A stretch of DNA of 64,000 nt, from NCBI RefSeq assembly GCF_988243305.1, contig NZ_OZ547136.1. One strand, 5' to 3'. Position 1 is the stretch's first letter. The number at the start of each line of letters is the position of its first letter. Positions 24,143-24,638 of this stretch are shown one piece after another. The position numbers and the translations under genes were made by a program. The notes below the pieces were generated by a model. The model had not been told where the DNA came from. It saw nothing but the letters and a program-made list of their open reading frames with translations, and searched no databases.

Positions 24143-24226
24143 TTAAAGACCTGCCGGGATTTCGATATCAACTGGCTCTCCGGAAACAAGAAAAACTGTC
24201 AGAACAAGTGCAAATGCTGTATTCAT
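24143..24226 (-). CDS. 27-aa hydrophobic ORF translationally coupled to dicB
   Basis: ATGA overlap with dicB stop; MNTAFALVLTVFLVSGEPVDIEIPAGL. Confidence 0.25.
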   Translation of the reverse strand: MNTAFALVLTVFLVSGEPVDIEIPAGL

Positions 24227-24411
24227 TGCCAGCATCCTTTTTGTATCGGACGTAAACGGGCCAGCATTGAAAGAATGCATATTTTATTTAATAGCTCCCG
24301 TTCGTGTTTTCTCTTGTTAATGGCATCTTCAGTAAATACAGGGTTACTGATAGTGACACCAATTTCAAAACAACCTTCAGACGTATTAACGTTTGGTAAT
24401 AACGTTTCCAT
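24223..24411 (-). CDS. dicB: cell-division inhibitor DicB
   Basis: 62 aa METLLPNVNTSEGCFEIGVTISNPVFTEDAINKRKHERELLNKICILSMLARLRPIQKGCWQ, near-identical to K-12 Qin DicB as recalled. Confidence 0.85.
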   Translation of the reverse strand: METLLPNVNTSEGCFEIGVTISNPVFTEDAINKRKHERELLNKICILSMLARLRPIQKGCWQ

Positions 24412-24580
24412 TATCGCGTCCTCAACAATGAATTTTGTGATGCGGTGCCTGGTGCCTCCAGGTGACGTTAACCAGTTAACAATTAACGCCGGATACAGAG
24501 AATCCACCCATAACACTGTTTTTGGTTTTAACTGTTCCGCGTGCGCTCAGCCGCATTCACCACATCACAAAATTCACTTT

Positions 24581-24638
24581 AAAAAGGGCGGCAGAGCAGT
24601 CACGGAGTAAAACTGATACCGCCAAACGTCACCAGAAA
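24581..24638 (-). ncRNA. dicF: DicF small regulatory RNA
   Basis: minus-strand sequence TTTCTGGTGACGTTTGGCGGTATCAGTTTTACTCCGTGACTGCTCTGCCGCCCTTTTT matches DicF as recalled, ends in hairpin plus T-run, lies just upstream of dicB. Confidence 0.8.

Follow-up and report, generated by a model that had tools for sequence, protein, structure and literature searches.

The locus described here raises the question of what an intact dicB and DicF pair is doing in a prophage of nearly full size, and whether the prophage that carries it can still be induced. In the window, that is, the whole 64-kb stretch of DNA that was analysed, a first-pass annotation had singled out positions 24223-24638, which run exactly from the dicB stop to the 5' end of DicF. 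It had proposed that an intact DicF and a 62-aa DicB lie there upstream of an exonuclease-domain gene, in an apparently complete, Qin-like and possibly inducible prophage. The three members are indeed in place (RF00039, 76.7 bits; PF05358, 127.4 bits; PF16473, 223 bits). We will argue that they belong to a conventional dicBF module, which forms the PL-type leftward early operon of a mosaic lambdoid prophage that has inserted at ompW, a reading to which we give a probability of about 0.85. The features on which the argument relies are collected in Table 1.

Table 1. Position and basis of the features of the dicBF operon and of the neighbouring immunity and integration regions.
Feature	Coordinates	Strand	Basis or remark
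attL region, phage-borne replacement of the ompW 3' end	19991..20111		comparison with strain 700462
integrase, 376 aa	20155..21285	-	100% identical to EC931 integrase
excisionase	21263..21511	-	100% identical to EC931 excisionase
exonuclease gene, 824 aa	21576..24050	-	PF16473 (C-terminal 3'-5' exonuclease domain), 223 bits; phrog_2082 'exonuclease', full length
ydfD remnant, 27 aa	24143..24226	-	alignment to K-12 and 55989, translation
dicB, 62 aa	24223..24411 (stop included)	-	Pfam PF05358, K-12 alignment; GAGGA 7 nt upstream of ATG
DicF-dicB spacer, 174 nt, structured RNA, STnc100-like	24412..24585 (region 24379-24588)	-	alignment, fold, Rfam
DicF sRNA gene, 53 nt, 3' stem-loop and U-tract	24586..24638	-	Rfam RF00039; K-12 b1574 identity
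DicF precursor 5' part (190-nt precursor)	24639..24775	-	alignment to K-12
64-aa ORF, opposite strand within the early-left operon	24978..25172	+	phrog_4987, no assigned function; 55989 hypothetical WP_001295058.1
116-aa ORF	25161..25511	-	phrog_2151, no assigned function
ydfA homologue, first gene of the leftward operon	25511..25663	-	PF07151 (DUF1391), 101 bits; 90% DNA identity to K-12 ydfA
GTAAC-N4-GTTAC palindrome, operator-like	25848..25861		between repressor 3' end and ydfA
CI-type repressor, 238 aa	25936..26652	-	Pfam HTH_3 and Peptidase_S24; alignment to lambda repressor 3bdn_A
two GTAAC-N4-GTTAC palindromes	26611-26624, 26659-26672		around the repressor/cro divergent region
P22-type cro	26702..26917	+	PF14549, 59 bits

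An Rfam scan of the whole 64-kb window returned a single DicF match, at 24586-24637 (-), with 76.7 bits (E 3.6e-15, for a gathering score of 48) and over the full model (positions 1-52 of 52). The dicF gene of K-12 MG1655 (b1574, 53 nt) is found exactly at 24586-24638 (-), and the 53/53 alignment leaves no differing position, pairing regions and terminator hairpin included. DicF sits in the early operon, upstream of dicB, together with its conserved 190-nt precursor: of the K-12 bases in the 137 nt upstream of DicF, 136 are identical, and the window has one extra C. Agreement of this degree in DicF, dicB and their surroundings is far from anything that chance would give. In K-12, RNase III generates this 190-nt precursor, and RNase III and RNase E together yield the 190-nt and 53-nt species (PMC10448788), a processing that is established in K-12 only. 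In the predicted fold, the upstream segment GGCGGUAAGUAUGGCGGGG pairs with the 3' half of DicF. Neither the DicF terminator nor the leftward promoter was called by the promoter/terminator scan. As a side observation, dicB codons 2-6, AAACGUUAUUA, form 11 pairs in cis, three of them G-U, with the single-stranded 5' region of DicF, UGGUGACGUUU; this pairing comes from the MFE fold of 24395-24640 (-) alone and could be due to chance.

The protein partner is equally complete, and it is a distinct allele. The 62-aa ORF matches the Pfam DicB family (PF05358) over its entire length (127.4 bits, positions 1-62 of 62), and 55 of its 62 residues are identical to those of K-12 DicB. The seven changes are K2E, Q36H, V47L, L55P, M56I, P57Q and A61W, five of them within the C-terminal 16 residues. 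This allele is the commonest among the approximately 110 loci that have an exact DicF; its product is 100% identical to the annotated dicB product of EC931, and its DNA is identical to dicB of 55989. K-12 DicB binds MinC and inhibits both division and ManYZ, thereby lowering the sensitivity of the cell to lambda (PMC6832061). The DicB of the window would be expected to act on MinC and ManYZ in the same way, an expectation carried over from a K-12 protein that differs from it at seven residues.

The module must be considered ordinary, since most E. coli genomes have it and at least one infectious phage carries it too. The 951-bp region that spans ydfD, dicB and DicF matches 4749 of the 5426 complete E. 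coli genomes, at a median of two places and up to ten, and it is matched over at least 80% of its length in 3424 of them. It also matches 61 deposited phage records, among them that of the plaque-forming phage Tritos, and the exact 53-nt DicF occurs in more than 120 IMG/VR viral contigs among the matches listed. With such numbers, the initial presentation of dicB and DicF as genes known from the defective Qin prophage appears K-12-centred. Already in 2016, dicBF was described from a number of different prophages, some of them lambda-sized (PMC5069750). At that time, approximately 2,000 phage genomes contained no DicB or DicF homologue, which was read as a hint that the module is retained mainly in defective prophages (PMC5069750). 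The current phage collection, together with the near-complete prophage of the window, argues against this hint. Because dicBF has been known in varied prophages since 2016 and is found in phage records, it is already established that a full-size prophage can contain intact dicB and DicF, and the finding as first stated adds little to a module that is ordinary, known since 2016 (PMC5069750) and represented in public records that include an infectious carrier phage.

The order exonuclease, ydfD, dicB, DicF, ydfCBA, repressor, cro is annotated in EC931, 55989, K-12 Qin and Tritos, and it is instructive to compare the window with the last two. The K-12 Qin module (ydfABC-dicF-dicB-ydfD-ydfE) has the same succession of ydfA, dicF, dicB, ydfD and the exonuclease gene; DicF is identical (53/53), the precursor and the spacer are each one position apart, and DicB is identical at 55/62 residues. 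The differences lie around this core. In the window, the 116-aa ORF and the opposite-strand 64-aa ORF take the place of ydfB/ydfC, only 27 aa of YdfD are left, the exonuclease, xis and int genes are intact whereas those of Qin are disrupted by IS2, and the repressor is a 238-aa protein of the CI/S24 type whereas that of Qin is DicA. The integration sites also differ, since the prophage of the window lies at ompW and Qin lies in the ydfJ-rspB interval. By BLAST, the 20.5-kb Qin covers 4.4 of the 43.9 kb of the prophage (about 10%), the shared parts being ydfA, the dicF-dicB-ydfD-ydfE block, hokD, ydfU and the lysis genes. The prophage is therefore Qin-like in modules only, and not the Qin-like relative that it was first taken for, as so little of it is homologous to Qin and as both immunity region and integration site differ; it is rather of the PPompW kind. 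Tritos (OV696610, a prophage of AIEC LF82) is likewise lambdoid, with the order int-xis-exonuclease-ydfD-dicB-DicF-ydfCBA-cI-cro, and its record annotates ydfD, dicB and 'DicF antisense sRNA' in this same order; its DicF is identical to that of the window at 52 of 53 positions. It differs by its repressor, its integrase, its late genes and its full-length ydfD, and its gene content is much closer to that of Qin than the window's is (cspB, cspI, gnsB, ynfN, ydfU). Tritos is spontaneously induced, makes virions and forms plaques on MG1655 (PMC9928086).

Downstream of dicB in the direction of transcription lies the 824-aa exonuclease gene, which is the intact counterpart of the K-12 pseudogene ydfE, with a DNA identity of 94.9% up to the IS2 insertion. 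Between both, ydfD carries an in-frame 108-bp deletion (junction 24165|24166), by which residues 22-57 of the 63-aa lysis protein, and with them most of its C-terminal domain, are gone. The remaining peptide consists of the first 21 residues and the last six, and the gene overlaps the dicB stop codon. Against DUF1482 (PF07358) the remnant scores 21.5 bits, below the cut-off of 25, and covers positions 1-20 of 57 only. The great majority of the loci with a recognised ydfD have the 63-aa form, and the deletion looks private because its junction has no match in the 5426 complete E. coli genomes, in IMG/VR or in the JGI metagenome contigs; it may be an assembly artefact. Since lysis needs an intact YdfD, C-terminal domain included, as judged from truncations (PMC8835842), the 27-aa copy is predicted to be non-lytic. 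On the other side of DicF, the 64-aa and 116-aa ORFs, which together replace K-12 ydfB/ydfC, are convergent and overlapping, and the 601-bp segment that holds them is 100% identical in O104:H4 and FORC strains.

This module is embedded in a prophage whose general layout could be followed up to gpJ. The first 20 kb of the window are E. coli chromosome (adhE, opp, cls, kch ... ompW), 99.6% identical to several strains. The prophage starts right after ompW, and its attL region matches at 81% the partial ompW copy at the attR of the ompW prophage of 700462. The early genes come in the order int, xis, 824-aa exonuclease, ydfD remnant, dicB, DicF, the two small ORFs and ydfA, then the CI-type repressor, the P22-type cro, a CII-like/YdaT gene, an O-like replication initiator, hok/sok, DUF968, RusA and Q. 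They are followed by a DNA methyltransferase, two tRNA genes (called as tRNA-Met, anticodon CAT, and tRNA-Arg), an STnc100 sRNA, iraM and an esterase, and then by the late part, which comprises holin, endolysin, spanin, HNH, the terminase subunits, capsid, portal, and the head-tail and tail genes up to gpJ. The hok/sok type I toxin-antitoxin system of the nin region, at 32396-32721 (+), gives 117 bits with the Rfam sok model, and its hokD homologue is 98% identical. The whole (20100-64000) is a three-way mosaic. The nearest relative of the dicBF segment (24050-25520) is the ompW prophage of the O104:H4/55989 lineage, EC931 comes nearest for int, xis, the O-like gene and the immunity region, and the late region is 100% identical to 700462 and NCCP15648. 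For the 24-kb early segment at 20100-44000, the best single-genome match covers 89%.

To assess gene completeness, the annotated genes of EC931 for the early half and of 700462 for the late half were translated and compared with the window. All the late genes, up to gpJ, are full length and 100% identical to those of 700462, and the early genes compared are full length except ydfD and a Ren-like gene. The description of the prophage as apparently complete thus holds for int, xis, repressor, cro, the cII-like and O-like genes, Q, and the lysis, terminase, capsid, portal and tail genes within the window, and it fails for the 27-aa ydfD, for the frameshifted Ren-like gene and for gpJ, of which the window end leaves 1069 of 1157 residues, tail fibres and attR lying beyond. 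In 700462, the same late region is followed by lom, by the genes for the tail fibres and by an attR that contains a partial copy of ompW. The DUF977/Ren-like exclusion gene, located after the O-like gene at 28365-28788 (+), is frameshifted at an A7 run (28596-28602); the nearest relatives (98.8% identical) have A6 there, and their 140-aa gene is intact. The gene may be a genuine pseudogene, unless the extra A is a sequencing error in the homopolymer. As the family is accessory (PHROG moron-class), this frameshift alone need not cripple the phage.

The comparison with the PPompW prophages described by Nakamura et al. in 2021 (PMC8112680) gives more reason to be careful. These are lambda-like and integrated at ompW, as is the prophage of the window, and about 65% of the 951-bp region (its positions 251-870, with dicB and DicF) is also present in public PPompW records, at about 96.6% identity. 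If the prophage of the window has the T3SS effector locus at its right end as well, this locus would fall beyond the window. All those analysed in that study appeared defective, with IS-mediated deletions and pseudogenes (PMC8112680), whereas the prophage of the window has no such IS deletions or pseudogenes in its lysis or head genes within the window. Packaging was looked for in two PPompW of O145:H28 and in the relatively well-conserved one of E2348/69, and packaged DNA was detected for none of them (PMC8112680). That these PPompW prophages appeared defective cautions against reading inducibility from gene content.

In the immunity region, the repressor aligns with lambda CI across both domains (3bdn_A). 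Among the features of an SOS-inducible repressor of the CI/LexA type, the lambda Ala111-Gly112 cleavage site and Lys192 are retained, as QAG and TLKKV, but the Ser nucleophile is missing: the position of lambda CI Ser149 is occupied by Ala151 (GDAM, codon GCG, 26200-26202). In a multiple alignment, a Ser is found at this position in an 87%-identical homologue of an O178:H19 strain, in three phage homologues and in lambda. The EC931 repressor also has Ala, and the GCG codon is present in 74 of the 76 sequences that share the flanking context. The gene occurs in 701 of the 5426 complete E. coli genomes, and it is at least 99% identical in 660 diverse genomes. Among 50,697 phage records, no repressor is more than 60% identical, the best reaching 43.8%, and a literature search found no paper describing the Ser-to-Ala allele. 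Slilaty and Little reportedly observed in 1987 that the S119A change in LexA abolishes cleavage. As the Ala stands at the nucleophile position in the same way as in LexA S119A, RecA-stimulated self-cleavage is not expected, and SOS induction via the usual route is therefore not expected either; the repressor should not self-cleave, and the suggestion that the prophage is possibly inducible becomes doubtful. The repressor thus resembles the ind- mutants of lambda CI and LexA (e.g., LexA S119A) by its Ala at the nucleophile position, with cleavage site and Lys kept, and it differs from them in being a natural and widespread allele rather than a laboratory mutant; its non-cleavability is predicted.

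The other elements of the immunity region were considered in the same perspective. The GTAAC-N4-GTTAC palindrome has three exact copies in 64 kb, all of them within the immunity region, and we take these as candidate repressor operators. The left one overlaps a weak leftward promoter candidate (TTGACT-17-TACCTT, 25873 to 25845) that was read by eye and was not called by the consensus scan. The search for an antirepressor found none: the ORF at the position that corresponds to K-12 Rem shows no similarity to this protein, and no antirepressor was identified among the ten nin-region ORFs, all of which fall in PHROG families of unassigned function. No N-like antiterminator was identified. A perfect CTGT-N8-ACAG motif lies at 25340-25355, inside the 116-aa ORF and upstream of DicF, but the window contains two perfect sites, a number within chance (12 of 100 shuffles reach two), and a relaxed LexA-box pattern is uninformative; there is thus no convincing LexA box in the window.

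As to the state of the prophage, the reading that we favour, and to which we would give even odds, is that of a prophage nearly complete in structure that either cannot respond to the SOS signal or is defective outside the view of the window, with a dicBF silent and retained by the host as in Qin. On this reading, an antirepressor or rare spontaneous derepression would be the only ways to turn dicBF on. The substitution of the nucleophile by Ala151, with the Ala-Gly site and the Lys kept, speaks for it, as do the presence of this Ala codon in 74 of 76 copies of the repressor context, the distribution of a gene carried by 701 of 5426 E. coli genomes and by no phage record above 60% identity, the apparently defective and, when tested, unpackaged state of the PPompW of Nakamura et al. 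(PMC8112680), and the damage to ydfD and to the Ren-like gene. It has to accommodate, however, the full length of all the structural, lysis and replication genes compared, the failure to find an antirepressor, and an identity of the repressor of at least 99% in 660 diverse genomes, which suggests a recent horizontal spread and therefore the need for a mobile phage or for recombination. We lean towards this reading over that of a fully functional SOS-inducible temperate phage, in which DicB and DicF would act early in the lytic cycle, to delay division and to keep superinfecting phages out. The latter, which we consider unlikely, would account well for the complete gene set within the window, for the same module being borne by the infectious Tritos and for a repressor of the LexA/CI S24 family with a conserved Ala-Gly site, but it is at odds with the replacement of the Ser nucleophile by Ala, given what is said of LexA S119A; the right end of the prophage moreover lies beyond the window, and its immunity type is absent from phage records. 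That the locus is a decaying, non-functional relic has in its favour the large deletion in the adjoining ydfD and is already contradicted by the sequence, with a DicF identical to the functional K-12 RNA, a full-length dicB of the commonest allele and a spacer and precursor nearly invariant across loci, so that this reading is very improbable.

The preferred reading, a near-complete prophage that does not respond to SOS or is defective elsewhere, can be taken one step further, although only tentatively. The dicBF module would then stand under a CI-type repressor that is naturally devoid of its nucleophile and present in about 13% of complete E. coli genomes, and the prophage would represent an early, 'locked-in' stage of domestication, or else one that depends on an antirepressor or on trans cleavage. 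We regard this proposal as speculative and rather doubtful. If the prophage is locked in, the host would keep DicB and DicF, along with other accessory genes, from a phage that is deaf to DNA damage; alternatively, the phage may rely on an antirepressor or on trans cleavage by the repressor of a co-resident prophage. For understanding how prophages become fixed, the locus may be more useful through its common nucleophile-less repressor allele, its apparently private loss of the lytic part of ydfD and the STnc100-like RNA between DicF and dicB.

How the module would work can be outlined from K-12. The mechanism described there is the default expectation because DicF and its flanks are identical or near-identical to those of K-12. 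The operon would be read in the order ydfA, the two small ORFs, DicF precursor, DicF, structured spacer, dicB, ydfD remnant, exonuclease, xis and int. By analogy with K-12, the repressor would keep the leftward promoter off, and derepression would yield a polycistronic RNA from which RNase III and RNase E would release the 190-nt and 53-nt DicF species. In K-12, DicF represses ftsZ and other mRNAs (PMC5069750), and the DicF of the window would be expected to pair with the same kind of targets, ftsZ included; ftsZ itself lies outside the window, as do minC and manXYZ. Transcripts that read through the DicF terminator would allow the translation of DicB, which would bind MinC and block Z-ring assembly, and which would also inhibit ManYZ, leaving the cell less sensitive to lambda-type phages. 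The trigger is the uncertain part of this scheme, because the repressor has no serine for RecA-stimulated self-cleavage. The whole would be a functional counterpart of lambda kil, a small division inhibitor gene that likewise lies in the leftward early operon, between the immunity and the recombination/integration genes (PMC3961180). The likeness is functional, and no sequence relationship is claimed. Kil acts on FtsZ via ZipA; DicB acts via MinC and is partnered by an sRNA.

The spacer between DicF and dicB is identical to K-12 at 173 of 174 positions, it is 174 nt long in 92 of 98 loci, and its sequence hardly varies from locus to locus, in contrast to the far more variable ydfD and 3' half of dicB; this comparison is biased because the loci were chosen for their exact DicF. 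A 1-nt indel distorts the ungapped conservation profile in the part upstream of about -80, which was set aside. The spacer is predicted to fold with -90.1 kcal/mol (z = -5.2), and a 21-bp long-range helix, which lies immediately before the dicB ribosome-binding site, closes the predicted structure. Over 29 unique sequences, three pairs of this helix alternate between G-C and G-U, three lose their pairing and no pair is altered on both sides; as no double compensatory change occurs, this variation does not prove the structure. In a permissive Rfam search, the spacer matched STnc100 (RF02076) over the full model with 38.7 bits (E 2e-6), below the gathering score of 47, which makes it a relative of STnc100 and not a member as judged by this score. 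A 2026 preprint ties STnc100 to PasD sRNAs; dicF and dicB go unmentioned there. The same prophage also bears a canonical STnc100 copy (132 bits), at 38049-38238 (+), between the tRNA genes and iraM and upstream of the esterase and lysis genes, and the core common to this copy and to the spacer is UGGUGAAU ... CACCnGGAGGCACCnGGCACC.
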